Assembly (NCBI GenBank): GCA_016187335.1
Contig: JACPJW010000001.1
Coordinates: 128,001 to 192,000, forward strand
Reading direction: 5' to 3'
Length of the DNA: 64,000 nucleotides
From: Candidatus Aenigmatarchaeota archaeon
GTDB lineage: Archaea; Aenigmatarchaeota; Aenigmatarchaeia; GW2011-AR5
The notes beneath the pieces were generated by a model. That model worked only from the letters and a program-made list of their open reading frames with translations, did no database searches and was not told the origin of the DNA. Positions within the stretch are counted from its first letter, which is position 1, and every line of letters begins with the position of its first letter. Position numbers and translations under genes: made by a program. Positions 19,310 to 63,060 of the stretch are shown here, in pieces.

Positions 19310-19338
19310 TTGGTTAAACTTTTTTATAAAAAGGTTGC
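19310..19338 (+). repeat. Family A mini-hairpin (imperfect)
   Basis: TTGGT followed by taaactttttt-at-aaaaaggttgc. Confidence 0.6.
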
Positions 19339-19351
19339 TTGAAAGAAAAAA

Positions 19352-19597
19352 TCACTTCTTCTTCTCGGCGCGTTCGCGCGCTTCCCATTTCATGTCTTCG
19401 TACTCAATCCAGGCGATGAGAAAGCCCAGGAACGCAAGGAACGCCCCGAAAGTCCCGAAGAACACCGTCTTCAGTGCGCTCCATGTATTAACGCCGAACA
19501 CGCTCCCGTTCCCGAACCAGGGGGTTGAAACGGCGTACCAATAAATGCCTGCGAATAAAATTAGCAGCCCTATGATCATTTTAACTGCTGAATTCAT
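19352..19597 (-). CDS. Small 2-TM membrane protein
   Basis: Two hydrophobic helices and a basic tail. Confidence 0.75.
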   Translation of the reverse strand: MNSAVKMIIGLLILFAGIYWYAVSTPWFGNGSVFGVNTWSALKTVFFGTFGAFLAFLGFLIAWIEYEDMKWEARERAEKKK

Positions 19598-19767
19598 TTT
19601 TTATCCACCTCTGGTTTACGTGATTATGTTTGTCGCAAAGCTTTTTAAACGCTATTGCTACAAGAACATACCGCTAGATATTTTATTAGTGGTATGTTCT
19701 GTACAATGAGAACGTACGTTCTCATTATAAAAGCAATTGTCGGATTTTTTTTTTGAAGGTGCCAAAA

Positions 19768-20325
19768 ATGGTTCATCAATATTTGCGGGAAGCGTGGAAA
19801 AAGCCCAGACAGACCGGCGAACAAAAACAGACCGACGAACGAAATTCGTCAAGCAACTTTGCGTCTATCGGTTCTCTTGTAAAGGATAAAGTGACAAAGT
19901 GGAGAAAGCAGGGAGTTGTTGTTCGTATTGACAAACCGACCAGGATTGACCGCGCCCGCTCTCTGGGTTACAAGGCGAAGCAGGGCTTTGTAATTGCAAG
20001 GGTGCGGATCAAGAAAGGCGGCAGAAGGCGCCACACAATAAGAAAAGGCAGAAAGCCGACGAAGGTCGGGCTTCGCCACTACACGCCTGAGAGAAGCAAG
20101 CAGTCAATAGCGGAAACCCGCGTTGCCGGAAGGTTTCCCAACATGGAGGTTCTGAATTCATACTACATCGGCGAGGACGGGAAATACAATTATTACGAGG
20201 TCATCCTTGTCGACTCCAATCATCCGGCAATAAGAAACGACAAAAGGATTTCGTGGATTGCCCGCCAGCGGCGGCGCGCATACAGGGGCCTGACATCAGC
20301 GGCAAAGAAATCAAGGGCGCTCTGA
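19768..20325 (+). CDS. rpl15e: 50S ribosomal protein L15e
   Basis: PTRIDRARSLGYKAKQG, FPNMEVLNSYYIGEDG, YYEVILVD; carries an insertion near the N-terminus. Confidence 0.96.
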   Translation: MVHQYLREAWKKPRQTGEQKQTDERNSSSNFASIGSLVKDKVTKWRKQGVVVRIDKPTRIDRARSLGYKAKQGFVIARVRIKKGGRRRHTIRKGRKPTKVGLRHYTPERSKQSIAETRVAGRFPNMEVLNSYYIGEDGKYNYYEVILVDSNHPAIRNDKRISWIARQRRRAYRGLTSAAKKSRAL

Positions 20326-20446
20326 TTCTTCCGTTTTAAAAGATTCCCGTCCTAAATTATTGCAAGGGCAGAACGCAGGATGGCATGAAGAAAGCAGCGG
20401 CGAACTTCGGCGCTTGCGATGTTGATGAAGCTCTTTGGTGGTAGTT

Positions 20447-21157
20447 ATGCCCTTCTACGACATGCATGTTCACACTACTCTTTCTATAGGCGAAAATACG
20501 CTGGGTGACATAGCGGATTTCGCGAAAAAGCTCGGCCTGAACGGCCTTGGCATTGTCAGGTATTACAGCGGCGGGAAAATCGAGCAACTGGCAAAAAGAA
20601 GCGACATTGATATCGTTGATGCGGTTATGCTCAAGCCTGCCAGCCCTGAAGAGCTGAACAGGCTGGCTGAGAAAGTTAGAGCAAGATCAGAAATCCTGAT
20701 GGTCCACGGCGGCAACTACGACGTGAACCGCGCCGCGTGCGAGAACCCGCTCATTGATGTTTTATGCCACCCGGAGCTTGGCAGGAACGACAGCGGCATT
20801 GACCATATTGTAGCAAAGGCGGCTGCTGAAAATGACGTTGCTGTTGAAATTAATTTCCGCGAGGTTCTGGAATCCTACAAGAGGCAGCGGGTGCATATTT
20901 TGTCAAGCATGAGGAAAAACGTGAAGCTGTGCGAGAAATACGAGGCGAAGATAATCACGGCTTCCGGCGCTATCTCAAAATGGAACATGCGCCCCGGCCG
21001 CGACCTGGCCGCACTGAGCCATTTGTTGGGCCTTGAGCTGGGAAAAGCGATAGACACTGTCACAACAATACCCGAAGAAATGGTAAGAGCGAACAGGGAG
21101 AAATTGGAAGGCAAAAGGTGGGAAGGAGTCAGCATTGTAGAGGAAGGTGGGGAATAG
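20447..21157 (+). CDS. rnp3: RNase P subunit p30 (Rpp30)
   Basis: PHP-fold DMHVH, NRAACEN, IDHIVAKAAAENDVAVEINF. Confidence 0.9.
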   Translation: MPFYDMHVHTTLSIGENTLGDIADFAKKLGLNGLGIVRYYSGGKIEQLAKRSDIDIVDAVMLKPASPEELNRLAEKVRARSEILMVHGGNYDVNRAACENPLIDVLCHPELGRNDSGIDHIVAKAAAENDVAVEINFREVLESYKRQRVHILSSMRKNVKLCEKYEAKIITASGAISKWNMRPGRDLAALSHLLGLELGKAIDTVTTIPEEMVRANREKLEGKRWEGVSIVEEGGE

Positions 21158-21477
21158 TGAAAATAAGCAAAGCACAGAAAATCGTGAAGGAATTTGCAAA
21201 GCGCAACAAATGGAAAGATGACCCGAACATAGACAAGTTCGACCATGTTCACGAGGAGCTAATAGAAATGTCAAGGCATTTGCGTTACAAGGAACTGGAA
21301 GAGCGCAAAAAAATCATCAAGGAAAGAAAAGAAGTTTTTGAGGACGGCATAGGTGATTTGCTTTTTGTTGTCATGCGCCTTTCAAACCAGCTTGGAATTG
21401 ATGCCGAGAAAGCTTTCGAAAAAGTAAAGAGAAGAATAACGAAAAGGTACGATAGGAAAAGCGAAGGAAAGAAGTGA
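21157..21477 (+). CDS. MazG-like nucleotide pyrophosphohydrolase
   Basis: HVHEELIE and EDGIGDLLFVVMRLSNQLGID; GTG start overlapping the rnp3 stop. Confidence 0.8.
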   Translation: MKISKAQKIVKEFAKRNKWKDDPNIDKFDHVHEELIEMSRHLRYKELEERKKIIKERKEVFEDGIGDLLFVVMRLSNQLGIDAEKAFEKVKRRITKRYDRKSEGKK

Positions 21478-21518
21478 AGATGAAAATGCGAAATTCGAAT
21501 TGACCGTGGTGAATAGTC

Positions 21519-21884
21519 ATGTCAGAACCCAAGATGCTGCCGCCGAGCATGCGCTCGCAGAAGCGCTATGTTGTATTTGAAATCATCAGCGAGCACAAAG
21601 TCGCTTATCCTGACATCGTCACGGCTGTATGGGCGAACATGTTGGGATTCCTGGGTGAAGCCGCGGCGAGCGAAGCAAAGATATGGAACATAAAAAACCT
21701 GTACGACGAGTCCCAGCAGAAGGGCGTCATAAGGTGTGCGCACGACCGCGTGGAGCATATAAGGACTGTCCTGTCCCTGATGCAGATAATCGGCGAATCC
21801 CGGTGCGTTGTACGGGTCGTCGGAGTGACAGGCACGATAAAGGCTGCCAGAAACAAGTATCTTTCTAAAGAAGCGGAGAAGTAG
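21519..21884 (+). CDS. rnp2: RNase P subunit Pop5
   Basis: LPPSMRSQKRYVVFE, GVIRC, VVGVTGTIKAA. Confidence 0.92.
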   Translation: MSEPKMLPPSMRSQKRYVVFEIISEHKVAYPDIVTAVWANMLGFLGEAAASEAKIWNIKNLYDESQQKGVIRCAHDRVEHIRTVLSLMQIIGESRCVVRVVGVTGTIKAARNKYLSKEAEK

Positions 21885-22018
21885 GAGAAAAATTTCAGCT
21901 TCCGGGGGAACTTAGGTTCTTCTGTATAAAAGGTTTTCTTTATTGGAAAATAGAAGGTAGCTTTATTGGTTTTTGGAAACAAGGAATGTTTGGAGTGAAT
22001 CATAGGGTGATTTTGGAT

Positions 22019-22420
22019 ATGGACTACAAAGAACTTCTGAAAAAAGCCCGCGCGAACCTGCCCGTGAAAAAGGGCGACGCCAGGTTTGAGATGCCGCGCG
22101 CCAGCGTGCTTATAACGGGCCGCCTGACTACCGTGAAGAATTTTTCGGACTTGGCCAAGATTTTGAGGCGTGATGCGAAGCATGTATCAAAATATTTATT
22201 CAAGGAGCTGGCAGTTCCGGGGGACATCAAGGGCGGCGAGCTCGTGCTGCAGGGAAAGTTTTCCTCGTCCGTGATCAACGGCAAGATAGAGAACTACGCT
22301 GAGGAGTTCGTCTACTGCCACGAGTGCGGCAAGCCCGACACGGTGGTTGTGAAAACAGACAGGATTGAGCAGATAAAATGCGAGGCGTGCGGCGCTCGCA
22401 GGCCTGCGCGCCATATCTGA
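22019..22420 (+). CDS. eif2b: Translation initiation factor 2 beta
   Basis: YKELLKKA, RFEMP, NFSDLAKILRR, CHECGKPDT, CEACGA. Confidence 0.95.
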   Translation: MDYKELLKKARANLPVKKGDARFEMPRASVLITGRLTTVKNFSDLAKILRRDAKHVSKYLFKELAVPGDIKGGELVLQGKFSSSVINGKIENYAEEFVYCHECGKPDTVVVKTDRIEQIKCEACGARRPARHI

Positions 22421-22442
22421 AGAACATGAATTTTGGCGGAAG

Positions 22443-22748
22443 ATGGTTCCGATGTTTGACTATAAGGTATTCAGGGCCGGCAGCGATGTCCTGGTTGCAA
22501 TAGCCGATTCTTCTATAGTAGGGAAAAAATTTTCCGAGGGCGGCCTGGAACTGGAAGTGAAAAGGGATTTTTACGGCGGCATGAAATGCGATGAAAGGAA
22601 AGCTGTGAAAATCGTGAATTCAGCCACTATCGTCAATGCAGTCGGCAAGGATATCGTATCGCTGCTGCTGAAGAAAGGCTTTGTGGACGGCGACAAGGTC
22701 ATCAAGGTGCAGAAAATACCGCATGCCCAGATAGTTGTGGTGAAGTGA
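22443..22748 (+). CDS. DUF424-family protein
   Basis: LVAIADSSIVGKKF, FYGG, ATIVNAVG, IPHAQI. Confidence 0.85.
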   Translation: MVPMFDYKVFRAGSDVLVAIADSSIVGKKFSEGGLELEVKRDFYGGMKCDERKAVKIVNSATIVNAVGKDIVSLLLKKGFVDGDKVIKVQKIPHAQIVVVK

Positions 22749-22753
22749 GTAAA

Positions 22754-23674
22754 TTATTCAACTTGAATTTCCGGAGCCTTGGATTCTTCATATAATTCAT
22801 TCAGATACATATTCGGGCCGCCCAGTATTCCCGCAACACGACTAAAGGCGGTTACAGGATCTTTAGGATCTACTTCGCCTTTGTACCATTTCATGTGGTG
22901 AGTTTTTTCCCAGTTGTATCTATGTTCGGATATTCCTGATTTTAGCAAGATTCTTCTTGCAAGCTCGGGATTTTCACCCTCCGATAGAAAAATCAAAGTC
23001 GTTACTGCGCTTTCATAATGCAACCCAGCTGTCCCAATAGGCTCTATCTGAGCTGCTACTTGCCTTAGTCCGTCTTTACTGCGCTCGGGATTAACAACGG
23101 GCTTTCCGACATCTTTCAACTGCGGCGTAAACCTTTCAGCCAGTTCAATTATTCTTCCTGCAGGGGTCTGTGGATGACCATCAGCGATTTCTTGCAGAAG
23201 CCTTCTATACATAGTTGCGGCTCTGAAACATCTTGCATTGTCCCTGACGTGATGATTAAGGCAAGGTTCAAGATTGTAATCAATTCGCAAACATGAATCT
23301 TCTCTTGCTAATTGATAAAATTCATTTCCTTTAGGTTCAAGGACATGGGACTCGTGCGGCAATAAAACAATATGAGAAAGCATCATAATACTCATTTTGT
23401 CCGAAGCATCTTCGTCAAAAAATACTACGCCTCGATATTCTCCGGTCTTGCATCCAAGACACAAGTCACTTACATGAATCCCTCCATACGATTCGAGTTG
23501 TTCTGCTGGAATGACACCAGGAAAAGTATAACGTCTTCCAAAAGGTTCAACCGTGCTTTTTGTTTGGAATCGCCCAAACCCCGCAGGACCCCAAGAAGTT
23601 TGCGTGGTTCCATCTTTTCCGCAATGAAGGCATGCAAGATTCTTTATAAGATGAACGTAGTCTATGGCGCTCAT
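22754..23674 (-). CDS. Hypothetical protein (ORFan) with two CxxC motifs
   Basis: CLHC and CLGC; AT-richer codon usage. Confidence 0.65.
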   Translation of the reverse strand: MSAIDYVHLIKNLACLHCGKDGTTQTSWGPAGFGRFQTKSTVEPFGRRYTFPGVIPAEQLESYGGIHVSDLCLGCKTGEYRGVVFFDEDASDKMSIMMLSHIVLLPHESHVLEPKGNEFYQLAREDSCLRIDYNLEPCLNHHVRDNARCFRAATMYRRLLQEIADGHPQTPAGRIIELAERFTPQLKDVGKPVVNPERSKDGLRQVAAQIEPIGTAGLHYESAVTTLIFLSEGENPELARRILLKSGISEHRYNWEKTHHMKWYKGEVDPKDPVTAFSRVAGILGGPNMYLNELYEESKAPEIQVE

Positions 23675-23756
23675 AAAACTTCCTTAATACTAATACCTCT
23701 TAGCTTAAATTCGTGAAATAATAGATGGAATCAATTACAAAGATATCACAAATAAA

Positions 23757-24119
23757 TCACGTCGTGAACGTCTCGGTCTTCTTCGCCCTGTTCGAGGAAA
23801 TGCCCAGCGTTATGGTGTATTTTTTCTGGGCGCAGTCCGCGGCAGAAAAGGAAACGTCTTCTATGTATCCCAAGGACGCCATCTTCCTTTTTGTGTAATA
23901 AATGGCTTCACTGAGGTTTTTTTCGATGCCCGCGCAGTCCGGCGGCGAGCTGCTCACAGAGTTTTCCAGCACCGTCTTCACGTTCTCGAAATAGAATGCC
24001 TCCGAAGACGTTCCTGTCGGCAGAAAATCTATTGCAGAATAGTCCCTGAGCAGGCCGGAAAGAACGACAAAAAACGACGTTATGACGACGGCGGAAATTA
24101 TGAACCACTGGCCTTTCAT
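23757..24119 (-). CDS. Pilin-like protein with class III signal peptide
   Basis: MKGQ|WFIISAVVITSFFVVL. Confidence 0.7.
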   Translation of the reverse strand: MKGQWFIISAVVITSFFVVLSGLLRDYSAIDFLPTGTSSEAFYFENVKTVLENSVSSSPPDCAGIEKNLSEAIYYTKRKMASLGYIEDVSFSAADCAQKKYTITLGISSNRAKKTETFTT

Positions 24120-24143
24120 GGAAAACTAATTGGCTGCGCGGCT

Positions 24144-25247
24144 TTAATGCTTTTTGCTGAAACTGATTATTTCTTCCGCCTCGCCTTCTTCCAGAGAAAA
24201 CTTCTCCGCCAGGGCGGCATTCTTGCGGAGCAGCGCGGAAACAAGCGGAATATAGCTCCTTGCCTTTTTTCTTGATGTGCCGAGCGCCGAGGCGATTTTT
24301 TCCAGTGCATCATTGCCTTTGCCCGCATAGAACCTCCGCGGCGGCTGGTATCTGGTAAAGCCGGCGTAAGCTTTTTTCTTGCTCAATGAAACGCCAAAAG
24401 CCGCGAGGTCGTATGCAAACTTCTGCAGGCTCCACGACTGCCTTTTTATTATCCTTGCTGAGAACAAATCCGACTTTGAAAGGTAGTCATAAGCAGCGGC
24501 GATTTCATCTTCGCTCCTGTATTCGTTAGCTATGTTCTCCTGCAGCCACGGTATCACGCTCTCTCCCGCGCTGCGCATTGCTTCGGAAACCGCGGAAATG
24601 CTCTTTGTCTTGAAAATTGTTCTCATAACAGCAAAAATATTTTCCTCGAAATCGCGCCGGCTTTCGCCTGAAAACAAATCAATAATGGCCGCGCGCAGGT
24701 CGCCGTTGCAGTTAACCGCTATCCTCCTTATCGCCTTCATCTCCATATCCATTTTTTCCAAAACAGCTACCTTCCTCAGGAAGTATTCAACGTCGTCAGC
24801 GGCGATCCTCTCGTATTTGACAAGAACGCAGCATTCGCGCAGCGCCCTCAATTTTTGCTCGTAAGCGTCGGTGGCGATGACAATCACAGGGAATTCGCTT
24901 TCCTGTACGAGGCCCTTTATGGCGGCGGCGGAATCCAGCGCTTCCGCGTCGTCTATGACAAACAGCTTTTTCTTGTAAAAAATGCTCCTCTGCTTCGCCG
25001 CCTTGAGCAGGGTTTCCTTTATGGCAGAAGCGCTCCTGATGTCGGAAGCGTAGCTCTCCACGAGCTCGCAGCCAAGCTCCTTTGCTATGAGCTTTACGGA
25101 CAAGGATTTGCCGACGCCCGGCGGACCGTAAAGAAGAAGCCCCTTTCCTTTCTTCCAGTTTTTCACCCATCGCAATATTCCGGCGGCCTGCTGCCTGTTG
25201 CCAGCAAAATCCTTGAGCGACATGGGCTCGTATTTCCGGAGGAGCAT
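24144..25247 (-). CDS. rfcL: Replication factor C large subunit
   Basis: KYEP.SL.D, GPPGVGKS, ELVESYASDIRS, GDLRAAI, QSWSLQKFA. Confidence 0.9.
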   Translation of the reverse strand: MLLRKYEPMSLKDFAGNRQQAAGILRWVKNWKKGKGLLLYGPPGVGKSLSVKLIAKELGCELVESYASDIRSASAIKETLLKAAKQRSIFYKKKLFVIDDAEALDSAAAIKGLVQESEFPVIVIATDAYEQKLRALRECCVLVKYERIAADDVEYFLRKVAVLEKMDMEMKAIRRIAVNCNGDLRAAIIDLFSGESRRDFEENIFAVMRTIFKTKSISAVSEAMRSAGESVIPWLQENIANEYRSEDEIAAAYDYLSKSDLFSARIIKRQSWSLQKFAYDLAAFGVSLSKKKAYAGFTRYQPPRRFYAGKGNDALEKIASALGTSRKKARSYIPLVSALLRKNAALAEKFSLEEGEAEEIISFSKKH

Positions 25248-25297
25248 GCTTTTCCTTTGGGAAGAATTTATAAAAAGAAGGTACACTGCAACTGCAT

Positions 25298-25999: not shown

Positions 26000-26029
26000 A
26001 GCAATCTGAAATCTCTGAAGGATTTAAAT

Positions 26030-26521
26030 TCAGAACCTGTATTCCTCCAACTTGTATATCTTTGATACGATGACTTCCTTCCAGTCGCCTATCAGGCCGC
26101 CGAATTTCTCGCGGAACTCCAGCTTCATGGTTTCGAACTCGCGCGCATCTTTGGCAAGAAAAACTATGTACAAATCATAATCGCCGAGCATGGCCATGAG
26201 GTCGATGACCCTCGGATTCTTTTTCATCGCGTCGATCAGCGCCTCGTACTTCTCCTTGTCTATGTCCTTCAGCTTGATGTAGACATGCACGGCGAAGCCG
26301 ATGCCTATTTTGCCCGGATCCGGCTCTATCGTATATCGCCTTATCACCCCGATGCGCTCAAGCTTTGCTATGCGCTTCTTCGTGGAATCAACGGAAAGAC
26401 CTATGTCACCGGCGATTTTTGTCAGTTTTGAGCGTGCATTTTCGCCTAAAATGTTCAGGATGCGCCTGTCTTTCTCGTCCAGGTGCCTTATTTTCTCCGA
26501 TTCCTCTTCATTTTTGACCAT
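26030..26521 (-). CDS. Lrp/AsnC-family transcriptional regulator
   Basis: LDEKDRRILNIL.ENAR, KRIAKLERIGVIRRYTI, LGDYDL. Confidence 0.93.
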   Translation of the reverse strand: MVKNEEESEKIRHLDEKDRRILNILGENARSKLTKIAGDIGLSVDSTKKRIAKLERIGVIRRYTIEPDPGKIGIGFAVHVYIKLKDIDKEKYEALIDAMKKNPRVIDLMAMLGDYDLYIVFLAKDAREFETMKLEFREKFGGLIGDWKEVIVSKIYKLEEYRF

Positions 26522-27608: not shown

Positions 27609-27821
27609 ATGCGCAGGCAGGCAAAGAAAATAGAAATAAAAAACGCCATGAAATGCGGGCGCTGCGAGCTTTCATTCAAGAGCATGCTCGCGCTGAAGAG
27701 GCACAGCCACGTGCATCTGGACGACATGCAGGAACTGAGGCTGCTGCAGGAAGGCCACAAGCCCGTGGAAACGAAGTTCGGCGGGATTTTCAAGGGGAAA
27801 AATAAGGTTATAATAAGTTAA
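27609..27821 (+). CDS. Small C2H2 zinc-finger protein
   Basis: CGRCELSFKSMLALKRHSHVH fits C-x2-C-x3-F-x5-L-x2-H-x3-H. Confidence 0.8.
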   Translation: MRRQAKKIEIKNAMKCGRCELSFKSMLALKRHSHVHLDDMQELRLLQEGHKPVETKFGGIFKGKNKVIIS

Positions 27822-27825
27822 TTCT

Positions 27826-27977
27826 TTGATTAAACTTTCTTTCTAAGAAAGTTTACAAGAACAGGGTTATTATAAGCTAATTCTTTTGGTGCAACTTTTC
27901 CTAAAAGTTGCTTTGATTAAACTTTGGATTTACTGGCCACAAGTCTCTTTTGGTGCAACTTTGGAGAAGCAAATTGC
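27826..27977 (+). repeat. Cluster of four family A mini-hairpin copies
   Basis: TTGAT+taaactttctt/tct/aagaaagttta; TTGGT+gcaactttt/cct/aaaagttgc; one partial and one degenerate copy. Confidence 0.8.
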
Positions 27978-28730
27978 TTAGTGACCGCCGTATTTGAATA
28001 ATGCAGTCATGTATATTTTTTCTAATTTAGGTATCTCTTCTCTGGGAAGACGTAACTCCAATGCTTCAAGCGTTCTGCTCATTGACCTGTATCTTACTGT
28101 ATCCCTTATGAAAGGCTTGAATCCTTCTTTGCCGTCATGAGGGCTGACATAATATCTGTTTACAAGATCGCCGAATGCAAGCGCCTCCCGATAAGGCGTT
28201 GTCGTCTCTATTTCTCTTCTTCCATTACCATCTTCATTAAGCCAGCCGCCGTATTCTGCGTATGTCTCCATGAAAAGCGTTGCTAGTGGTTGCGGAACAT
28301 CAGCGCTTTTCAAAAGTCTTCTGGACCTGACATGCCTAGTTTCGTGGTCCGTGACTCTTTGAGGGCGTAAGTGAGAAGGTAAACGTCTATTGAAACCCAT
28401 CACAGGAACTTTCACAGCATCTCTAATTGGGTCGTACTGGAAGCCTGTGACGCCTGGCGGACCGTTTTCATATACTACAACGGGTACTCTACTGTTTTCA
28501 GGTTTATCACCCACGCCAAGGTCATCTTCTTGGTTTATCTTCCTGAAAGACCTTTCTACGCTTGATCTAACATCATAAGGCAAACCGCTTGTATCCAGAG
28601 AAGGCATAAGGAGTCCGCGCAGCATTCCTCTTAATCTGAATCCGGGCATCATGAGCGTAAGTTCGTCCACTAATTCCTGCACGCTTGTCCCGCCCCTGTA
28701 GTCCGAAATGCTTCCTCTCATCCAAATCAC
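27978..28730 (-). CDS. Hypothetical protein with HExxH motif (possible zincin metalloprotease)
   Basis: VTDHETRHV followed by METYAE; AT-richer codon usage. Confidence 0.6.
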   Translation of the reverse strand: MIWMRGSISDYRGGTSVQELVDELTLMMPGFRLRGMLRGLLMPSLDTSGLPYDVRSSVERSFRKINQEDDLGVGDKPENSRVPVVVYENGPPGVTGFQYDPIRDAVKVPVMGFNRRLPSHLRPQRVTDHETRHVRSRRLLKSADVPQPLATLFMETYAEYGGWLNEDGNGRREIETTTPYREALAFGDLVNRYYVSPHDGKEGFKPFIRDTVRYRSMSRTLEALELRLPREEIPKLEKIYMTALFKYGGH

Positions 28731-29726: not shown

Positions 29727-29728
29727 GA

Positions 29729-32939: not shown

Positions 32940-33284
32940 TCAAACTACAATCCTTCCTTTTGTTTCTTTACCCAAAGCCTCTTTCAGCATCAGGGCTTTT
33001 CCGCCGGCTTTTTCTATCTTTTCCTTTGCTGAAGAAGAATAACCGAGCGCGTAGACATTTATTTTTTTTGTCGCGCTGCCCGATGAAAGAACCTTGCCGG
33101 GCACGAAAACACTGTCATTATCTGAAGCTGCCTTGTTTATCTTGAACAACGTGACGCCTTTTTTCTGCCGGCGCGGCTTTGCCAGATGTTTTGCCAGCTG
33201 CGAATGGAAAGGCGTTTTCTTCGCGCGCAGTTCCGCTATCAGCTTCGCTAGCTCAGGATTCGTCGGGCCTGTCGGTTTTGGCAT
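32940..33284 (-). CDS. rpl18e: 50S ribosomal protein L18e
   Basis: PTNPEL, VFVPGKVLSSG, SAKEKIEKAGG. Confidence 0.96.
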   Translation of the reverse strand: MPKPTGPTNPELAKLIAELRAKKTPFHSQLAKHLAKPRRQKKGVTLFKINKAASDNDSVFVPGKVLSSGSATKKINVYALGYSSSAKEKIEKAGGKALMLKEALGKETKGRIVV

Positions 33285-33411: not shown

Positions 33412-33673
33412 GCGGGGGTTCCCGAGAAGCCCTTTTTAGAAAAAAGCGCTTGCGGAAAAACTAAGGAGGGTTAGGGAATGGCCAAAGGGGCAGGACGGTT
33501 GCCGTGAAAATGGTGCCGGGCTTCACTTAAGGCATGGCTTAAGTTTCGAGCTAAGACAGCTTAGCTATGAAAGAAATCCTGTGGCTTAGTGCCTTCGAGA
33601 GTTCGAATGCGCCCTTTCTTGGAAAGAAAGCGTGCACGGAAAGAAACGGGTGCCGAAAATCTCTTCCCCCGCA
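33412..33673 (+). tRNA. tRNA-Leu(TAA) with four introns (15/16, 30/31, 37/38, 59/60)
   Basis: Exons 33412-33426, 33479-33494, 33525-33531, 33576-33607 and 33660-33673 join into an 84-nt type II cloverleaf; each junction folds as a BHB or BHB-like motif. Confidence 0.9.
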
Positions 33674-33737
33674 TTTTTCTGCCTTGTAGAAAGCTTTAAA
33701 TTTCTATAATGCATCCTTACTTTAAAGTAGTGAATGT

Positions 33738-37630: not shown

Positions 37631-37714
37631 TTTTATCACTTGTCAAGATGGATGGATAATTCTTCGTTCAATTTTCTCATTAGCTTATTTTAATCGAACA
37701 ATCTCGTTCCCTTT

Positions 37715-37740
37715 TTGATCAAACTTTTTTGAAAAGTTTG
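37715..37740 (+). repeat. Family A mini-hairpin after the rps13 stop
   Basis: TTGAT+caaactttt/ttg/aaaagtttg. Confidence 0.85.
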
Positions 37741-42423: not shown

Positions 42424-42445
42424 ATCAGAACCCATCATTTATTTT

Positions 42446-42474
42446 TTGATGCCAACTTTTTTGTAAAAAGTTGC
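42446..42474 (+). repeat. Family A mini-hairpin
   Basis: TTGAT+gccaactttttt-gt-aaaaagttgc, near-perfect. Confidence 0.75.
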
Positions 42475-48041: not shown

Positions 48042-48121
48042 GATTTCATTACGACTTCTTCCAAATATAAAATAATTCTTTCTTTCCGCCAGAGCTTTCT
48101 TTTTAAAGAAAGGTCTAAGAG

Positions 48122-48252
48122 CGCCGAGAGGGAGATTTGAACTCCCGCGAGCACGAGGCTCACAAGCTTTCTTACAACCTTCCCTTTTGATGCAACTTTT
48201 GGGAAAAGTTGCTTCCAGGCTTGCGCGTTGGACCAAGCTCCGCCATCTCGGC
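48122..48252 (-). tRNA. tRNA-Ser(GGA) with a 44-nt intron at 37/38
   Basis: Acceptor GCCGAGA/TCTCGGC, G73, CAAGC-CT-GGA-A|intron 48212-48169|A-GCTTG, long variable arm, GGGAG-TTCAAAT-CTCCC. Confidence 0.92.
48187..48212 (+). repeat. Family A mini-hairpin inside the tRNA-Ser intron
   Basis: TTGAT+gcaactttt/ggg/aaaagttgc. Confidence 0.9.
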
Positions 48253-48281: not shown

Positions 48282-48336
48282 TTGCGCAGAAACCAAAGGT
48301 TTCTGGCAATCCCAGAAAGCTCTTGCTTTCTGAGGA
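48282..48336. repeat. Family B double hairpin
   Basis: ttgc-g-cagaaacc/aaa/ggtttctg-gcaa-tcc-cagaaagc/tctt/gctttctg-a-gga. Confidence 0.8.
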
Positions 48337-48408
48337 TTCTAATCTCATTTCCCTTATTACAAAATATTAAAGAATTAGTTTATTAGGGCTCTGAGAAGCC
48401 CTACCCTT

Positions 48409-48434
48409 TTGATTAAACTTTTTGGAAAAGTTTA
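48409..48434 (+). repeat. Family A mini-hairpin after the Trm112 stop
   Basis: TTGAT+taaactttt/tgg/aaaagttta. Confidence 0.85.
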
Positions 48435-48602: not shown

Positions 48603-48745
48603 GAATTACTTTTGAAGAATCAGGCTTTTAAGATTATATTCCCCTGCACTGCCATTTAATCTGACGATGCGAATGCTGTGCAGAAGAGATGGGTATTTCA
48701 CGCACTTTGGTTCTTAGGTGGTCGTACGCCTGAAGAAAACGTAAT

Positions 48746-49702: not shown

Positions 49703-49739
49703 GAAGAGAATTATCCGAGCAAGAATTAAAATGGCCGTT

Positions 49740-49765
49740 TTGGTTAAACTTTTTTGAAAAGTTTA
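49740..49765 (+). repeat. Family A mini-hairpin overlapping the DUF106 stop
   Basis: TTGGT+taaactttt/ttg/aaaagttta. Confidence 0.85.
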
Positions 49766-56050: not shown

Positions 56051-57115
56051 ATGACGAAAATCATGGGCGCGGGCCCTGCGGGCCTTTGCGCTGCAATAAA
56101 CATTGCAAAGGCCGGCAGGGAAGTGAAGATATTTGAGATGCGCAGCGACGTCGGCATGCGCTTTCACCCGAACCTTCAGGGGCTGAAAGACGTTGGCAAC
56201 CCCGAAGACTACATGAAAGAGCTGAACATAAACCCGAAGACGGGATTCAGGTATTTCTCCAGGGCATTTTTCGGCACAAGGAAAAGGGACATAGAGCTTG
56301 ACATCGGGAAGTCAATGCCCTTCGTCGTGCGCGGCGGAAAGGAATCCTTAGAGTACGGGCTTTACCGGGAAGCGCTTGACCTGGGAGTGGAATTCGAATT
56401 CAATTCCAGGATAACGAAAGACGGCGTTGACATCGTGGCGGCGGGCCATGGCGGAACATGCGACGCAGCCGCGCTTGGCATGGTTTTTGAGGACACGGAC
56501 TTCCCCAGGGATGCGTTCCTTATAATTTTTGACGACAGGTATTCGCCAAAAGGCTGGTACAGCTATATTGTGCCGATATCGGACGACCGTGTAGAATTCG
56601 TGAACTGCGTGTCCCAGCCTCACGTGCCGCTCTTGAGAAAACTGACGGAAAAGGCGCTGCAGGAAAGGAAAATAGTCCGCGGCTTCCTTGACGGGAAAAA
56701 AAAGGTGGCAACGTTCGGGGGCGTCGGGAATGTGAGCGTCCCTAAGACGGCCTTCATAAACAACAGGTATTACGTCGGCGAGGCCGCCGGATTCCAGGAC
56801 CCTTTCATGGGCTTCGGCATCACGTATGCGCTGAAATCGGCAAAGATGGCCGCCGACGCAATTGTGAACGGTTATGACTACGACGCCATGTGGAAAAGGG
56901 AGATAATGCCAAGGATGAGGAAGGATTTCGCGCGGCGCTTCCCGGTGTCCATATTCGGCGACGCCCTGCCGGAGATGTTCATGAGAAAGTACAGGAGCGG
57001 CGACAGGATAGATTTCCAGGACGTTATCCCTTCGTCGTTCCCGTTATACAACGTTGCGGAGTTTGTGCTCTTCAGGTTAGAGGTCCTGAAAAAGCGCCTG
57101 ACCGGCTTCTGGTAA
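56051..57115 (+). CDS. Second, divergent FAD-dependent GGR-family oxidoreductase
   Basis: IMGAGPAG, PKGWYSYIVP, VGEAAGFQDPFMGFGI. Confidence 0.82.
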   Translation: MTKIMGAGPAGLCAAINIAKAGREVKIFEMRSDVGMRFHPNLQGLKDVGNPEDYMKELNINPKTGFRYFSRAFFGTRKRDIELDIGKSMPFVVRGGKESLEYGLYREALDLGVEFEFNSRITKDGVDIVAAGHGGTCDAAALGMVFEDTDFPRDAFLIIFDDRYSPKGWYSYIVPISDDRVEFVNCVSQPHVPLLRKLTEKALQERKIVRGFLDGKKKVATFGGVGNVSVPKTAFINNRYYVGEAAGFQDPFMGFGITYALKSAKMAADAIVNGYDYDAMWKREIMPRMRKDFARRFPVSIFGDALPEMFMRKYRSGDRIDFQDVIPSSFPLYNVAEFVLFRLEVLKKRLTGFW

Positions 57116-57175
57116 GATTCTCCTCCGTATCGCAATGCTTATATAGTCCTGTATACGCTGTTATACACAGTTATA

Positions 57176-57346
57176 ATGCCGTCTACAACTATCCGCATAA
57201 GCAGGGACAACAGGAAAAGACTCAATGATTTAGGCAGGAAAGCCGACACTTATGACGACATTCTCGGGCGTCTTCTTGATTATATTGAAAAAGAAGGGAT
57301 TGATTTTAACGAATTGAACAATTCAAAGAAAAAGGTGAAAAAATGA
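57176..57346 (+). CDS. Small ribbon-helix-helix / antitoxin-like protein
   Basis: TTIRISRDNRKRL..LG...TYDDILGRLL; ATGA overlap with smc; translated by hand. Confidence 0.75.
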   Translation: MPSTTIRISRDNRKRLNDLGRKADTYDDILGRLLDYIEKEGIDFNELNNSKKKVKK

Positions 57347-59766
57347 TACGCCTGGACAGGATAACCATGCAGGGATTCAAGTCCTTCGCAGGAAAGATAA
57401 CAATACCGTTTCCCAAAGGATTCAACTGTATCTGTGGCCCGAATGGATCCGGAAAGTCGAATATAATAGACGCCCTCACATTTGTTCTTGGAACATCCTC
57501 AGCCCGTGCCATAAGGGCCCAGCGCCTGCAAAATCTTTTATTTAACGGCGCGCGCGACAAAAAGCCCGCTGATTTCTGCGAAGTGACGTTGTACCTGGAA
57601 AACGACGGCTCCATAGCAGGTTACGAAAGCGAAATAAAGGTGAGCCGCCGCGTGAACAGGAGCGGCGTGACTTTCTACAAGCTCAACGGGAGGACGGTCA
57701 CGCGTTCAAAAATACTGGATTTGCTTGCCAACGCCAACCTTTCCCCGGAAGGCTACAACATAATAATGCAGGGCGACGTGACGAAAATAATAGAGATGAA
57801 CCCGAAAGAAAGAAGAGGCATCATTGACGAAGTGTCGGGCATAGCGGAATTTGACGACAAGAAGGAAAAGGCGCAGCGCGAGATGGAAAGGGTTGAAATG
57901 CGCGTGCGCGAGAACATGATTGTCGTTGCGGAAAAGCAGAAACTTGTTGCGCGCATGAAGCAGGAAAGAGAAAGCGCAGAGAAATACAAAAAGCTGGGCG
58001 ACGAGCTGAGAAAAAGCAGGGCATCCATGCTTAACAGGAAAATGAAGGATATAGAAGAGAAGCTTTCTGTCACGGAAAAAGAAGACAGGGAAAGCGACGA
58101 AAGGCTGGCCGCCATAGACAAGGACCTTAAGAAGGCGGAAAAGGACCTGCGTGAAAATGAGGACCTGCTGAAGAAAATGAACGAGGATATTCTGAAAAAA
58201 TCCCGCAACATAGAAATAATGAGGAAAATAGATGCCCTGCAGACAGAGATTATCAGAAAAAAAGACAAGATTGACCTTAACGAGCGGCAGGCATCTATGC
58301 TGCGCTCAACGGAAAGAAACGAGGCCGTCAAGGATATTTTGTCCGGCAATTTCAGCGGCGTTCACGGGACTTTCTCTTCGCTGGTAAGCACCGACAGAAA
58401 ATACGAGACAGCTCTGGAGGTGGCGGTTGGCAGGCACGACAAGGATATTGTTGTTGACGACGAGGACATAGCGTCTGGCTGCATAAATCACCTGAAGAAA
58501 AGGAAAATCGGGCGGGCGCGCTTCCTGCCGCTGAGGAAACTGCAGAAACGCGAAAGGAGGGAATACAGGGGAAGGGAAAAAGTCATTGGGTACCTGATCG
58601 ATTTCGTGAAGTACGACGGGAGATTTTCTTCTGCTGTCAAGCATGTCCTGGAATCTGTCCTTGTTGCCGACAATATTGATACTGCAAAAAGAATAAGCGG
58701 CTTCAAGGTAGTGACTTTGGAAGGCGACCTTGTCGAGCCGAGCGGCGAGATGATAGGCGGCTATTACAAAAGAAAGATGAAAGATGTCGGCTTTCACGAG
58801 ATAAAGAAGCTGGAAGAAGAAAACCTTGGGCTGGAAAATGAAATAACAAAGATAGAAAAAGAACTGGCAGTTTTGAAGTCGCAGGAGCAGTCGGAATCAA
58901 AGGAAGTGATGAAGCTGCAGGAAAGGAAAAATAATGTTGAGAAAGCCGTTGAAGACCTCAGGAAAAAGTGGAAGGATGCCCTGGAAGAAAAAATAGCGTT
59001 GCAGGGCGGCGTCTCAAAGGGCAAGATAGAAAGGGCAAGGCTTGAGGCTTCTTACGATAATTTGAAAGTGGAAGCTGAGGAGTTCTCTGAAATAAAGGAA
59101 TACTACAGCAGGTCCGTTGACGAGCTGCAGGAGCGCGTTCGCTCGCTGACGCTGGAAATAAACAAGCTGGGGCCTGTAAACCTCAGGGCCCTGGAAGAGT
59201 ATGATGTGATCATAACGGAGTTTGAGGAATTAAAGAAAAAACTGGACAAGCTCATAAATGAAAAGGAAGCCGTGATGAAAGTGGTGGAAGAAGTTTCAAA
59301 GAGGAGGTATGAAAAATTCATGGAAACGTTCGGCGAGATAAACAAAAACCTGACGCAGATCTACCATGACCTTGCCGGAGGAGCGGCAGGGCTGCGCCTA
59401 GAAGAGGAGAACAACATTGACAGCGGCCTGATTATAGAGGCATCGCCCCCGGGAAAAAGGGTTCTAAACCTGGACAGCATGTCAGGCGGCGAGCGCACGT
59501 TGACGTCGCTGGCGTTTCTTTTTGCAATCATGCAGCATTATTCCTCGCCGTTTTACGTGCTGGACGAGGTTGATGCTGCTTTGGACAAGTCCAACACTAA
59601 GAAAATAGCGGACCTCATCAAGAAATATTCCGGCAAGGTGCAGTTTATAGTAATAACGCACAATGACCTTACTATATCCGAAGCCGACAAGGTCTTCGGC
59701 GTCAGCATCGAGGGCGGAGTATCAAAAGTCTTCGGCATAGAGATGCCGCAAGAGCAGCCAGCATGA
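57343..59766 (+). CDS. smc: SMC protein with short coiled-coil arms (807 aa)
   Basis: GPNGSGKSN, IMQGD Q-loop, hinge GVHG..GRARFLPL..GG, MSGGE, LDEVDAALD, ITH. Confidence 0.95.
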   Translation: MIRLDRITMQGFKSFAGKITIPFPKGFNCICGPNGSGKSNIIDALTFVLGTSSARAIRAQRLQNLLFNGARDKKPADFCEVTLYLENDGSIAGYESEIKVSRRVNRSGVTFYKLNGRTVTRSKILDLLANANLSPEGYNIIMQGDVTKIIEMNPKERRGIIDEVSGIAEFDDKKEKAQREMERVEMRVRENMIVVAEKQKLVARMKQERESAEKYKKLGDELRKSRASMLNRKMKDIEEKLSVTEKEDRESDERLAAIDKDLKKAEKDLRENEDLLKKMNEDILKKSRNIEIMRKIDALQTEIIRKKDKIDLNERQASMLRSTERNEAVKDILSGNFSGVHGTFSSLVSTDRKYETALEVAVGRHDKDIVVDDEDIASGCINHLKKRKIGRARFLPLRKLQKRERREYRGREKVIGYLIDFVKYDGRFSSAVKHVLESVLVADNIDTAKRISGFKVVTLEGDLVEPSGEMIGGYYKRKMKDVGFHEIKKLEEENLGLENEITKIEKELAVLKSQEQSESKEVMKLQERKNNVEKAVEDLRKKWKDALEEKIALQGGVSKGKIERARLEASYDNLKVEAEEFSEIKEYYSRSVDELQERVRSLTLEINKLGPVNLRALEEYDVIITEFEELKKKLDKLINEKEAVMKVVEEVSKRRYEKFMETFGEINKNLTQIYHDLAGGAAGLRLEEENNIDSGLIIEASPPGKRVLNLDSMSGGERTLTSLAFLFAIMQHYSSPFYVLDEVDAALDKSNTKKIADLIKKYSGKVQFIVITHNDLTISEADKVFGVSIEGGVSKVFGIEMPQEQPA

Positions 59767-59789
59767 AACATGGAAAGGGACGAATACTA

Positions 59790-60554
59790 ATGGCAGAAGA
59801 CATCGCAAAAAAGCCTGAAGCAAAACATGGAAACGATTCCGCTATGACAGAAAAAGCCATAGATGAATCCAAGCTTATCCGCACGATTGTTCTTGGCAGC
59901 GACTGGCAGGAAGTTTTGGAAAACATTGTCGTTGAAGAGGGTTTAGACCCCCAGCATATAGACATAATAAATCTGGCCGACTCGTTCACGGAATATATGC
60001 AGCGCCTGAAGGTGTTTGACTTCCGAATTCCCGCAAGGTTCATCCTTATCGCTGCAATACTGCTCAGGATGAAATGCGAGCTGCTTCTGGAGGAGGAAGA
60101 AGAGAAGGCGCGCATTGAATCTGCAGCTCTCCCGAACATCAGCCTGGAGAACATACCTGAACTGACAGCGCCGCTCATGAGGAAGCCGACAAGGAAGGTG
60201 ACTCTTGACGAGCTGATAAGGGCGCTGGACAAGGCTTTCGAGTTCAAAGAGCGGAAGGAAGGAAAACAGCTGAGAATGCGGCGTGCTGTTGAAAACCTTA
60301 TTGAACCCGAGGAGGACATAGAGCTGCGGATAAGCAGGATATACGACAGGATAACGAAGCACAGCGTAATAAAGTTCTCTGATCTTGTGCACCCCTGGAA
60401 AAGAAAAGAGATTGTGAAAATATTCATGCCCCTGCTCCACTTGGAGCAGCGCGGTCGCGTGGTTTGCGAGCAGGAGGAATTTTTCAAGGAGATAACGATA
60501 AGGATTGTGGAAGAATCGGAGCAGCCTAAAGAGCCTCAAATGGCCCAGGAATAA
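59790..60554 (+). CDS. scpA: Segregation/condensation protein A (kleisin)
   Basis: LDPQHIDI..LAD, ARFILIAAILLRMK, RKVTLDELI.AL, FMPLLHLEQRG. Confidence 0.92.
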   Translation: MAEDIAKKPEAKHGNDSAMTEKAIDESKLIRTIVLGSDWQEVLENIVVEEGLDPQHIDIINLADSFTEYMQRLKVFDFRIPARFILIAAILLRMKCELLLEEEEEKARIESAALPNISLENIPELTAPLMRKPTRKVTLDELIRALDKAFEFKERKEGKQLRMRRAVENLIEPEEDIELRISRIYDRITKHSVIKFSDLVHPWKRKEIVKIFMPLLHLEQRGRVVCEQEEFFKEITIRIVEESEQPKEPQMAQE

Positions 60555-60569
60555 TAAGGGAAAGTTATT

Positions 60570-61151
60570 GTGAAAAGAAAACCAAAAGAAACCGAAGTTC
60601 CGCAGGAACTTCAACCTGATGGGGTTGTCTTGTCTATGGCAATAAGGAACAAGGAGCAGAAAATTGCGCTGCTGGAAGCTGCGCTGTTCACGACAACCGA
60701 GCCCTTGTCTGTCGATGAATTGCAGAAGGCAACGAAGATAACGTCAGGGGAAATAGAAATCCTGCTGAAGGATATTGAGCAGAAGTATTCAGGTGCAGAG
60801 CACGGCGTGAAGCTGTCAACAATCGGCGGCTACCGCCTGATGGTCAAGGAGCAGTTCGTTGAAAGGGTATCCCATTTGACGCCGCACGCTGATTTGTCCA
60901 GAGGCCTGCTCCGCGTCCTTTCTATAATTGCCTACCACGAGCCTGTGCCTCAGTCGGACATTGTCAAGATTATAGGCAACAGGACATACGAGTATGTCAA
61001 GGAACTGGAGGAGCGCGGGCTTGTCAAAAGCGAGAAGAAATCCAGAACGAAAATGTTAAGCACCACGCCGCAGTTTGAGGAATATTTCGGCGCCAAGAAA
61101 GAAGAAATAAAGCGCATGGCAGAGGGCGTTGAAGAGCAAAACAAAGAATGA
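60570..61151 (+). CDS. scpB: Segregation/condensation protein B
   Basis: LEAALF, LSIIAYHEPV.QSDIVKIIG, TTPQFEEYFG. Confidence 0.94.
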   Translation: MKRKPKETEVPQELQPDGVVLSMAIRNKEQKIALLEAALFTTTEPLSVDELQKATKITSGEIEILLKDIEQKYSGAEHGVKLSTIGGYRLMVKEQFVERVSHLTPHADLSRGLLRVLSIIAYHEPVPQSDIVKIIGNRTYEYVKELEERGLVKSEKKSRTKMLSTTPQFEEYFGAKKEEIKRMAEGVEEQNKE

Positions 61152-61171
61152 AATCAAGCCTGAAAAAAACT

Positions 61172-61816
61172 TCATATAAATTCTTCAATGGTTCTCAGGT
61201 ATTTTTCCATTCTTTTGCTGATGTCTTTTTCATTTGAAATCAGGTAAAAATGAAAAAACCTTTCTGTCGGCGACTGCCAAACAGCTTCTATCCCTGGAAT
61301 ATTCCTGTTTATAAAAAATCTTTGGAATAGAATCTTTCCCTTATCTCTCGTTATTTCAGAATCCTTTATTTCTACAACAGACCCGAAAGCATCTACAGAT
61401 TCAATCCCTTTCTGATAATTTTTCAGCATATCCAAACCTAATTGAAGTCTCCTTTCCATTGTAGAATTGGTGCGCGGAGTGTACCAGAAAAGAACTGTTG
61501 ATTCATCTCCTACGGGAAGGTCCCCCGCAGCATGAAATGCTTCCACTCCGATTATCATTCCGGATTCGTAACTTGCATTTACTTCATTATATAGCCCGTA
61601 ATCATAAACTTCCATTCCTCTGGGGTATGTGAATGCTATGCCTATTTTTGGGTTGGAATACCTCACGAATTCCGATTGCTGGGCTTGTGCAGCCTGTCCC
61701 TGTGAAGAGCCGAAACTAGGCGCCGCCGTTCCCATCAAAGCAGATGCCATTACGGCGGCTGCGCCCGCACGCAAATATCTTCTTATGCCTGATGTCATCT
61801 TCTTACCTTTAATCAC
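61172..61816 (-). CDS. Secreted hypothetical protein, possible PsbP-like fold
   Basis: Signal-like N-terminus; YSNPKIGIAFTYP motif; AT-rich. Confidence 0.55.
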   Translation of the reverse strand: MIKGKKMTSGIRRYLRAGAAAVMASALMGTAAPSFGSSQGQAAQAQQSEFVRYSNPKIGIAFTYPRGMEVYDYGLYNEVNASYESGMIIGVEAFHAAGDLPVGDESTVLFWYTPRTNSTMERRLQLGLDMLKNYQKGIESVDAFGSVVEIKDSEITRDKGKILFQRFFINRNIPGIEAVWQSPTERFFHFYLISNEKDISKRMEKYLRTIEEFI

Positions 61817-61857
61817 TACTTTACAGTAGCTGTTATATAAAGCTTTCGCTCCAGAAA

Positions 61858-62445
61858 TCAGCTCTTGACGGCAATCCTGATTATCTCGCTTAAAATTTCC
61901 TCGGGCGGCCTGTTGCCGTCTATGACGTATGTTTCCGGAAACAGGTTCTTCATGTTGAGGTAATTCCTCCTTATCTGCTCCAGTTTGTGCACCTCTTCGA
62001 ACAGCTCAAGGTGCGGCCGCGATTTCTTCATCCTCTCGACGCATATGCTCGGCTGGGTGTCAATGAAAAAAGTCATGTTCGGCTTCCGGAAATAAGCGTT
62101 CAGCTGCTTCAGTATCTGCAGTGACACGTCCAGCGAGCCGTAAGCATACGAGCTGAGTATGTAGCGATCGCATATCACGATCTTGCCTTTCTTCAGCAGA
62201 GGCTCTATTTCAGTTGTCAGGTGGTGCGAGCGGTCCGCGGAGAAAAGAACCTGCAGCGTGAACGGCGACGTTTTCCATTCCTTGCGCAGGGCTGCTTTTA
62301 TGGTCCCGCCTATTATGCCTTCCGTCGGCTCCTTTGTCAGAAATGCTTCCTTTCCTTTGCTCAAGAAGTAGTTCCTCAGCAGGGTTGCCTGTGTTGTCGT
62401 GCCCGCTCCGTCAAGCCCCTCGAACACAATCATTTTGCCTGCCAT
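61858..62445 (-). CDS. tmk: Thymidylate kinase
   Basis: FEGLDGAGTTTQ, KEP, ADR..H, CDRYILSS.AYG. Confidence 0.94.
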   Translation of the reverse strand: MAGKMIVFEGLDGAGTTTQATLLRNYFLSKGKEAFLTKEPTEGIIGGTIKAALRKEWKTSPFTLQVLFSADRSHHLTTEIEPLLKKGKIVICDRYILSSYAYGSLDVSLQILKQLNAYFRKPNMTFFIDTQPSICVERMKKSRPHLELFEEVHKLEQIRRNYLNMKNLFPETYVIDGNRPPEEILSEIIRIAVKS

Positions 62446-62483
62446 GCTTACCGCTATGTTTAGCGCTTAGATGTATAAAAAGT

Positions 62484-62804
62484 TTATTTGGCTGTTTCGT
62501 TTTCAATCCATTTTAAATAATCGGGATTGCCTTCTGTGATCGGGAATGCATTGACGCATGGCACGCTGTAAGAATGGTGCTTCTTGACTTCATCAAGAAT
62601 TTTTTTGTAGAGGGCTTTCTTCGTCTTTGCTATAAGCAGCGCCTCGCCGTGTTTCTCTATCCTGCCTTTCCACCAGTAGGCGCTTCTTATCGGCATGATG
62701 TTCGCGCACGCTATGAGGCGCTTTCTCAGCAGTATTTCGGATATTTTATCAGCTTCCTTCCAGTCCTTTGTAGTGATGTAAACGGCGATGAATTTTGCTG
62801 GCAT
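62484..62804 (-). CDS. cutA: CutA divalent-cation tolerance protein
   Basis: LIACANI, YWWKGRIE, HSYSVP, YLKWI. Confidence 0.94.
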   Translation of the reverse strand: MPAKFIAVYITTKDWKEADKISEILLRKRLIACANIMPIRSAYWWKGRIEKHGEALLIAKTKKALYKKILDEVKKHHSYSVPCVNAFPITEGNPDYLKWIENETAK

Positions 62805-62864
62805 AATCCATTCTTCCATCCTGCGCTTAAATATGTATAGGCATTATTATGCATAGGTGGGACT

Positions 62865-63035
62865 ATGGCTTACGTGAGGTACAAGCTGCCGGAAGAGACG
62901 CACAAGCTGCTGAAAAAGGTTTCTTCGCGTCTGGGCATGAAGGAATCAGAGGTCTCCAGAATTGCATTGATGGAATACCTGAAATCACTGGGCGTTCTGA
63001 ACGAGCGCGTGAAGAAAAAATTCGTTTTCAGGTAA
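62865..63035 (+). CDS. Ribbon-helix-helix (CopG-like) protein
   Basis: YVRYKLPEETHKLLKKVSSRLGMKESEVSRIALMEYL; translated by hand. Confidence 0.8.
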   Translation: MAYVRYKLPEETHKLLKKVSSRLGMKESEVSRIALMEYLKSLGVLNERVKKKFVFR

Positions 63036-63060
63036 ACTTTTTAAGAAAAAGTTTAATCAA
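63033..63060 (-). repeat. Family A mini-hairpin overlapping the RHH stop
   Basis: taaacttttt/aag/aaaaagttta+ATCAA (TTGAT on the minus strand). Confidence 0.85.

Follow-up and report, generated by a model that had tools for sequence, protein, structure and literature searches.

What kind of sequence is repeated as a tiny hairpin with a fixed foot, both at stop codons and inside tRNA introns, in an archaeal genome? The question is raised by a 64,000-nucleotide (nt) stretch of a groundwater Candidatus Aenigmatarchaeota archaeon (contig JACPJW010000001.1, positions 128,001 to 192,000; hereafter the window), which is C2:128001-192000 of a 1.01-Mb genome in two contigs, C1 and C2 (47% GC, 91% complete; G000). 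An SMC homologue assigns the genome to this phylum. A first-pass annotation of the window described a set of such hairpins, called Family A, and proposed either a repetitive extragenic palindromic (REP)-like system spread by an HUH enzyme or a repeated 3'-UTR signal. The observation was confirmed by the analysis presented here, and the interpretation was partly supported. Family A is probably a very small non-autonomous mobile element with a core of about 27 nt, which lands on stop codons, in the loops and flanks of tRNA genes, and at in-frame sites. No account of the element was found in Rfam or in the literature searched; the empty-site junctions and the stop-codon statistics were tested in the present analysis.

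Empty and filled sites in close relatives

On the strand on which the hairpin precedes the tail, the Family A unit is NN-AACTTT(T)-loop-(A)AAAGTT-NN-A(T/C)CAAAA. Among the window copies compared with the corresponding sites of relatives are these:

37714..37740, minus strand: Family A copy in the 110-nt S13-S4 spacer, 1 nt past the stop codon of S13
48375..48434, minus strand: 60-nt composite insert exactly behind the Trm112 stop, in which a Family A hairpin and its foot are followed by a second hairpin GGGCTTCTCAGAGCCC and a short tail
49737..49763, minus strand: 27-nt insert, hairpin and foot ACCAAAAC, between the second and third base of the stop codon of an EMC3-like gene

Syntenic DNA of the relatives was taken from Logan contigs (L105 and L106; 85-88% protein identity to G000), which were collinear with G000 over L44e, the EMC3-like gene, cbf5 and Trm112. 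Upstream of cbf5, two relatives had an empty site that reads ...CGTT TAG GCG TTTTTAATTC. At this site G000 had 27 extra bases between TA and GG, made up of the hairpin and ACCAAAAC; the stop codon was rebuilt as TAA, and the C-terminus of the EMC3-like protein, KVYV*, was unchanged. Behind Trm112, L105 and L106 ran from the stop straight into TTCTTAAA..., at the position of the 60-nt insert in G000. L105 in turn had a copy of its own in frame inside the EMC3-like gene, which added eight codons and was absent from both G000 and L106. Presence and absence at the same junctions was thus seen between close relatives, which shows that gain and loss of Family A take the form of a discrete indel in the DNA.

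There was no target duplication at the two spacer inserts (upstream of cbf5 and at Trm112), while the 3' junction of the in-frame insert of L105 had diverged and was uninformative on this point. The TTGAT foot was absent from both spacer empty sites, which indicates that it arrives with the insert. The idea that TTGAT is a target already in place was therefore not upheld at the two clean empty sites; three other junctions were ambiguous. One of these lies in the S13-S4 spacer, which measured 110 nt in G000. Among family-level relatives with S4 still beside S13 it was 5-35 nt in most and about 60 nt in one. In a closer relative, L107, it measured 84 nt and contained a foot-like stretch and no hairpin.

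A congener of G000 with a half-complete genome, G001, provided a further comparison. In the same tRNA genes, one genome had the element as a T-loop intron where the other had it 2-3 nt past the 3' end, and the element occupied different stop codons in the two. Junctions between G000 and G001 were too diverged for the boundaries of the inserts to be set.

Number and structure of the repeat units

A genome-wide motif scan identified 114 oriented copies of Family A in G000. Ten were in the window, nine of them clean, rather than the approximately 12 first estimated: eight perfect copies, an imperfect one (42445-42474) and a degenerate one (19307-19338). All eight of the sites that the first-pass annotation had placed by coordinate were confirmed, each with a perfect stem of 9-11 base pairs (bp) and a 3-nt loop directly 3' of TTGAT or TTGGT (the copy at 63033 being reversed). 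A pattern that included the foot had five hits in the window, compared with 0.00 expected from 100 dinucleotide shuffles. The copies outside tRNA loci that are not listed above were as follows:

19307..19338, minus strand: degenerate copy with a TTGGT foot and an imperfect stem, lying 13 nt past the stop codon of open reading frame (ORF) 19352-19597 on the minus strand
27825..27855, minus strand: copy with an 11-bp stem and the foot ATCAAAG, 122 nt behind the stop of ORF 27978-28721; the converging ORF 27609-27821 has its stop 4 nt away from the foot
27885..27911, minus strand: copy with GC..GC outer pairs and the foot ACCAAAA, head-to-tail with copy 27825
42445..42474, minus strand: imperfect copy, 41 nt behind the S28e stop
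63033..63061, plus strand: copy that opens with the TAA stop of a 56-amino-acid ORF (62865-63035) as its first three bases, 14 nt upstream of the start of a GT2 gene; relative L108 had only TAAAC joined directly to AAGTTT at this locus

Across the 114 copies the stems were 9-10 bp, in agreement with REP-type repeats, which are palindromes of 20-40 bp in many extragenic copies. About 93 copies had a 3-nt loop, and a sub-family of 12 had an 8-nt loop, GCTGCTCC. The covariation of the outer stem that had been noticed in the window extended to the whole genome: the outermost pair was G:C in 40 copies, C:G in 30, T:A in 29 and A:T in 14 (113 of 114 Watson-Crick, 31 expected by shuffling), and the second pair was Watson-Crick in 109 and G:T in 4 (48 Watson-Crick expected by shuffling). 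Copying of the outer bases from the target by fold-back synthesis was considered and rejected, as the empty sites at Trm112 and within the ORF lack the TA.

The tail 3' of the stem began with ATCAA (92 copies), ACCAA (10), ATCAT (9) or GTCAA (3), followed by AA. There was no U-tract, as the first-pass annotation had also noted, and the tail was A-rich in 104 of the 114; in this Family A differs from an intrinsic terminator, which combines a hairpin with a U-tract. Predicted RNA hairpins were weak (-4.7 to -9 kcal/mol). Upstream of the hairpin the 114 copies shared no conserved target motif, only a weak preference for purines or A. In the window no Rfam family reached its gathering score, and the match near copy 33383 was at chance level.

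Several copies formed head-to-tail arrays of two or three units with a period of 27-30 nt (C2:419555-419642, 76471-76525 and 803322-803374; C1:15068-15125). Some units in these arrays had mismatched outer bases, which suggests unequal recombination between copies.

Orientation and association with stop codons

Between co-directional protein genes, 48 copies were in the sense orientation and 6 were antisense (p = 3e-9). Orientation tracked the gene strand on both strands of the genome (Fisher p = 2e-6), and all 19 pairs of neighboring copies less than 150 nt apart were head-to-tail, with none inverted.

With genes called by a codon-usage model, 68 of the 114 copies had an upstream gene in the same sense, and in 28 of these 68 the start of the copy fell in the interval from -3 to +4 nt relative to the end of that gene's stop codon. 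If copies were placed uniformly within spacers, 7.5 would be expected, and none of 200,000 simulations reached 28. The same G000 copies showed no like pile-up on the foot side or at start codons. Stop-codon targeting, as claimed for the window, is therefore an association far beyond chance, but the number of window copies involved was four by the present gene calls rather than five: 37714 (+1), 48408 (0), 49739 (-3) and 63033 (-3). Stop-adjacent copies were also present in G001, G017 and G238.

The outer bases NN of the stop-adjacent copies were enriched in TA, GA and TG, so the stop codon (TAA, TGA, tGA or taG) is itself part of the stem. The ORFs flanking them were real genes, including those for S13, Trm112, SufB/D, a family B DNA polymerase, a cation ATPase and the EMC3-like protein, and the protein ends matched those of comparable relatives (S13 ...EKK*; EMC3-like ...KVYV*). 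Five further copies lay in the last 38-86 nt of ORFs and were read through as ...NFS(K/E)K... tails, as expected had they destroyed the stop.

Copies in tRNA genes, rRNA genes and reading frames

About a quarter of the copies were in or next to tRNA or rRNA genes, and the others were in spacers or at ORF ends. This fraction is approximate, since the classification relied on a rough regular-expression classifier, and deletion of each copy followed by aragorn gave messy, partly spurious calls, because many of the tRNAs hold several introns. On G000, aragorn reported 4 tRNAs without intron search and 22, some of them dubious, with it. Several copies were inside tRNA genes in tRNA sense, and copies were located in D-loops, anticodon loops or T-loops, or 0-3 nt behind tRNA 3' ends. 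Two tRNA loci in the window were associated with Family A:

48121..48252, minus strand: tRNA-Ser(GGA) gene with a 44-nt anticodon-loop intron (aragorn)
48186..48212, minus strand: Family A copy in tRNA sense, forming the 5' part of the tRNA-Ser intron; GGGAAGGTTGT downstream is able to pair with arm 1 and the loop
33383..33411, minus strand: Family A copy with a 10-bp stem, abutting the +1 of a plus-strand multi-intron tRNA gene and antisense to that tRNA; 99 nt upstream of a minus-strand gene starting at 33284
33412..33692, plus strand: multi-intron tRNA gene with the acceptor GCGGGGG/CCCCCGC, read by eye and reported by no tRNA finder; an intron from a different repeat family, containing AAAGCGTGCACGGAAAG, interrupts its T-loop

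T-loop copies had a third arm, AAAGTT plus matching outer bases, about 10 nt behind the tail. When the copy at C2:821274 was folded by hand, pairing of arm 1 with the third arm closed a bulge-helix-bulge (BHB) of a 3-nt bulge, a 4-bp helix and a 3-nt bulge (outer helix CGGGG/CCTCG, central helix TTCG/CGAA, bulges AAT and ATT). The same perfect 3/4/3 motif was found by hand at L036, in another family, while anticodon-loop copies gave only relaxed BHB motifs by hand. A third arm matching the outer bases was present in 19 of the 114 copies, with 9.5 expected, and it is a trait of the intron copies rather than of Family A as a whole. The tRNA-borne subset, for example the tRNA-Ser(GGA) copy and copies seen as inserts in tRNA alignments, resembles BHB introns in that the copies are in tRNA sense and their removal restores the RNA; this comparison does not apply to the roughly 80 intergenic copies. 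The splicing endonuclease EndA is encoded in G000 (PF01974, 97 bits, C2:410532-410810).

The match to 16S rRNA was split, with about 1.2 kb between the pieces (C2:239678-242953), and Family A copies were found inside 16S (242575) and directly behind its 3' end (239646). At C2:738925-739122, immediately upstream of the complete tRNA-Met gene, the first 16 nt of that tRNA (GCCGAAGTGGCTCAGT) were duplicated so as to flank a Family A copy on both sides; the complete gene has another copy in an anticodon-loop intron. The duplication looks like an intermediate towards a D-loop intron. At C2:888710 (locus L078) a multicopper oxidase gene had an in-frame copy where its Cu-oxidase_3 domain is separated from Cu-oxidase_2, and this copy would read ...IIEP-SNFSEKLHQNG-KYDKEF.... 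For annotation, the consequence of Family A is that tRNA genes are hidden from finders and ORF ends are lengthened or shifted.

Distribution across the Aenigmatarchaeota

An exact 26-mer pattern of Family A was searched for in 371 genomes representing 170 genera of the phylum, with the reversed pattern as a control. It was found in 48 genomes and 28 genera, and the control had no match anywhere. Bursts were seen in four genomes: G000 (51 exact matches), G359 (14), G001 (12) and G238 (8). Of the copies inspected in relatives, 13 of 16 were in tRNA introns, and the burst in G359 was made up of near-identical copies sitting in T-loops, with at least seven tRNA genes affected. Family A is the same module as the core of tRNA introns, probably of the BHB type, across the Aenigmatarchaeota.

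Proposed explanations for Family A

The core of Family A is a 9-10-bp A/U-rich stem with a 3-nt loop and the A(T/C)CAAAA tail. As a probable mobile element, it would have multiplied to at least 114 copies in G000, most of them in transcribed spacers, by means of an enzyme probably supplied in trans. Subfamilies with the outer bases TA, TG or GA would rebuild a stop (TAA, TGA and tGA, respectively) and for that reason may survive on stop codons. In so compact a genome the next promoter or ribosome-binding site would often lie within a few bases of the stop, which may leave little other neutral space; at the two empty sites, the A/T-rich box upstream of the next gene began within three bases of the stop, so hardly another neutral site exists there. 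Copies in tRNA genes may persist because they can be removed as BHB introns.

Four points weigh against this explanation. No mobilizing enzyme was identified in G000, where searches for Y1_Tnp, TnpB and RVT_1 all returned no match. Foot-like sequence without a hairpin was present in the S13-S4 spacer of L107 and at two G000/G001 junctions; these were read here as relics left after loss of the hairpin, although they could be taken in the opposite sense. The conservation of the core across the phylum could also mean a selected function. Finally, copies that destroy a stop and extend the protein are not obviously explained by survivorship alone. Together with the sense bias, the split and destroyed stops hint that stop codons may in addition be actively targeted, for instance by way of an RNA intermediate, and the absence of a reverse transcriptase match argues against that.

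The best of the alternatives, which we nevertheless consider unlikely, is a selected RNA signal at mRNA 3' ends, in which a hairpin with the stop in its stem protects the 3' end, marks processing between cistrons or slows terminating ribosomes. REPs near stop codons in E. coli are reported to act on 3' ends or on terminating ribosomes. The sharp placement at stop codons and the sense orientation agree with such a role, as do the phylum-wide core with its compensatory changes in the outer pairs and the four G:T pairs, which are wobble pairs on the sense strand only. Nevertheless, relatives with the same genes lack the hairpin at the same junctions, the same module is found in tRNA introns, tRNA flanks, rRNA and ORFs, the hairpins are weak and have no U-tract, and only about 30 of roughly 1,100 genes carry one. 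The repeated 3'-UTR signal proposed at first fits poorly with presence and absence in close relatives and with the tRNA and ORF copies.

Movement of Family A at the RNA level is somewhat less probable again and is put forward very tentatively. Intron-like RNA, excised with a 5'-OH and a 2',3'-cyclic phosphate, would be ligated by RtcB into RNAs broken in the loops or trailers of tRNAs or at stop codons that had been cut in the A site of the ribosome, and would then be copied back into DNA. Such a route would account for the orientation in sense, for the missing target duplication and target sequence, for the split stops, and for the occurrence of one module both as an intron core and in spacers. 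If true, it would be a concrete route for the origin of archaeal tRNA introns. 

The mechanism by which archaeal tRNA introns arrive has been stated to be unknown (PMC4090602), and a 2026 preprint on Asgard archaea gives no general route for their arrival (10.64898/2026.10.13.758758). With Family A, one small module can be traced between close relatives, in tRNA genes and elsewhere, and its junctions can be read to the base, which makes the arrival step testable.

It is very doubtful that Family A is a REP-like system in which an HUH enzyme (Y1, RAYT or IS200/IS605-type) inserts the hairpin 3' of a TTGAT target. TTGAT is the target of ISDra2, a member of IS200/IS605, and Family A resembles that system in being a short palindrome with a fixed 5-nt foot and TTGAT beside the hairpin, in lacking a target duplication at the two spacer inserts, and in the foot-like sequence at three junctions without a hairpin. 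At the two clean empty sites, however, the foot of Family A is inside the inserted unit rather than a prior target. The foot is inside tRNA introns as well, orientation follows transcription, and G000 had no match to either TnpA or TnpB. Y1_Tnp (PF01797) had no match in G000, in the three other burst genomes (G001, G359 and G238) or in G012; one match was found, in G024, which has just six Family A copies. The enzymatic part of the original proposal was therefore not supported, while the idea of a REP-like repeated hairpin that spreads survives in the form of a small, non-autonomous, moving repeat.

Systems of REPs or REPINs with their REP-associated tyrosine transposase (RAYT) are like Family A in their short palindromes, high copy number, mostly extragenic location, often just behind genes, and tag at one end (PMC3733652). 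Their terminal tetranucleotide is GTAG or CGTC (PMC3733652). Family A has neither tag, its conserved end A(T/C)CAAAA reading TTTTG(A/G)T in the complement. A search of G000 for a RAYT gene had no match, the copies are single or head-to-tail rather than in the inverted dimers (REPIN or BIME) that are frequent in such systems, and they are found in tRNA introns too. Miniature inverted-repeat transposable elements have terminal inverted repeats and a target duplication; in Family A the two clean spacer junctions showed no duplication, and the hairpin itself is the sole inverted repeat.

Least credible of all is a promoter or 5'-UTR element for the downstream gene, which could account for the 79 of 104 intergenic copies with a co-directional downstream gene, for fixed-distance cases such as the hairpin centered about 24 nt upstream of the tRNA-Met +1 at C2:739000, and for an 8-nt-loop variant followed by a Shine-Dalgarno-like GTGGTGA and ATG, but conflicts with foot-to-start distances that have no mode and vary between 4 and more than 1,000 nt, with the 25 copies that face a converging gene, with the A/T-rich TATA-like boxes of ordinary G000 tRNA genes, and with the presence of TTTTTAATTC upstream of cbf5 with or without the insert.

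A 27-nt hairpin would thus be able to spread through a 1-Mb genome without a recognizable transposase if Family A is, as we think probable, a mobile element. The closest described phenomenon is the transposition of BHB tRNA introns in the Thermoproteales (Fujishima et al. 2010, as presented in PMC4090602, where the mechanism is given as unknown). As presented there, those introns are likewise gained by an unknown DNA-level route and removed by the splicing endonuclease. In Family A the shared module is only about 27 nt, it recurs in 28 genera of another phylum, and tRNA genes hold only a minority of the G000 copies, the others being at stop codons, within spacers or in frame inside ORFs. Rickettsia palindromic elements (RPEs) resemble Family A as palindromic selfish elements with no known dedicated transposase that occur in frame in protein genes and in RNA genes, but they are 100-150 bp long and bacterial, while Family A is archaeal, measures about 27 nt and is found above all at stop codons and in the loops of tRNAs. 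In-frame insertion of RPEs in genes was reportedly described by Ogata et al. in 2000. RPEs are also mentioned in PMC3733652.

Sequences that accompany Family A

A second hairpin family (GRSCTTCTCAGAGSYC) was often found 3' of the Family A tail, in the window at 48375-48407 (minus strand) and elsewhere at C2:81056, C2:716288 and C2:260746. At Trm112 this hairpin came with Family A in one 60-nt insert, which suggests that composite units move together.

Another motif, AATAAGGGAAATGAG, was located upstream of tRNA-Ser, at about 48300-48375 of the window (minus strand), and was kept in relative L105 (about 7150-7188). Many copies of Family A had this motif beside them, and it may act as a promoter-like module. 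The enlarged S13-S4 spacer contained a similar TAAAATAAG..ATGAG. The cbf5-Trm112 spacer was about 140 nt in the window (48603-48745) and about 350 nt in both close relatives (6624-6974 in L105), with little similarity between them.

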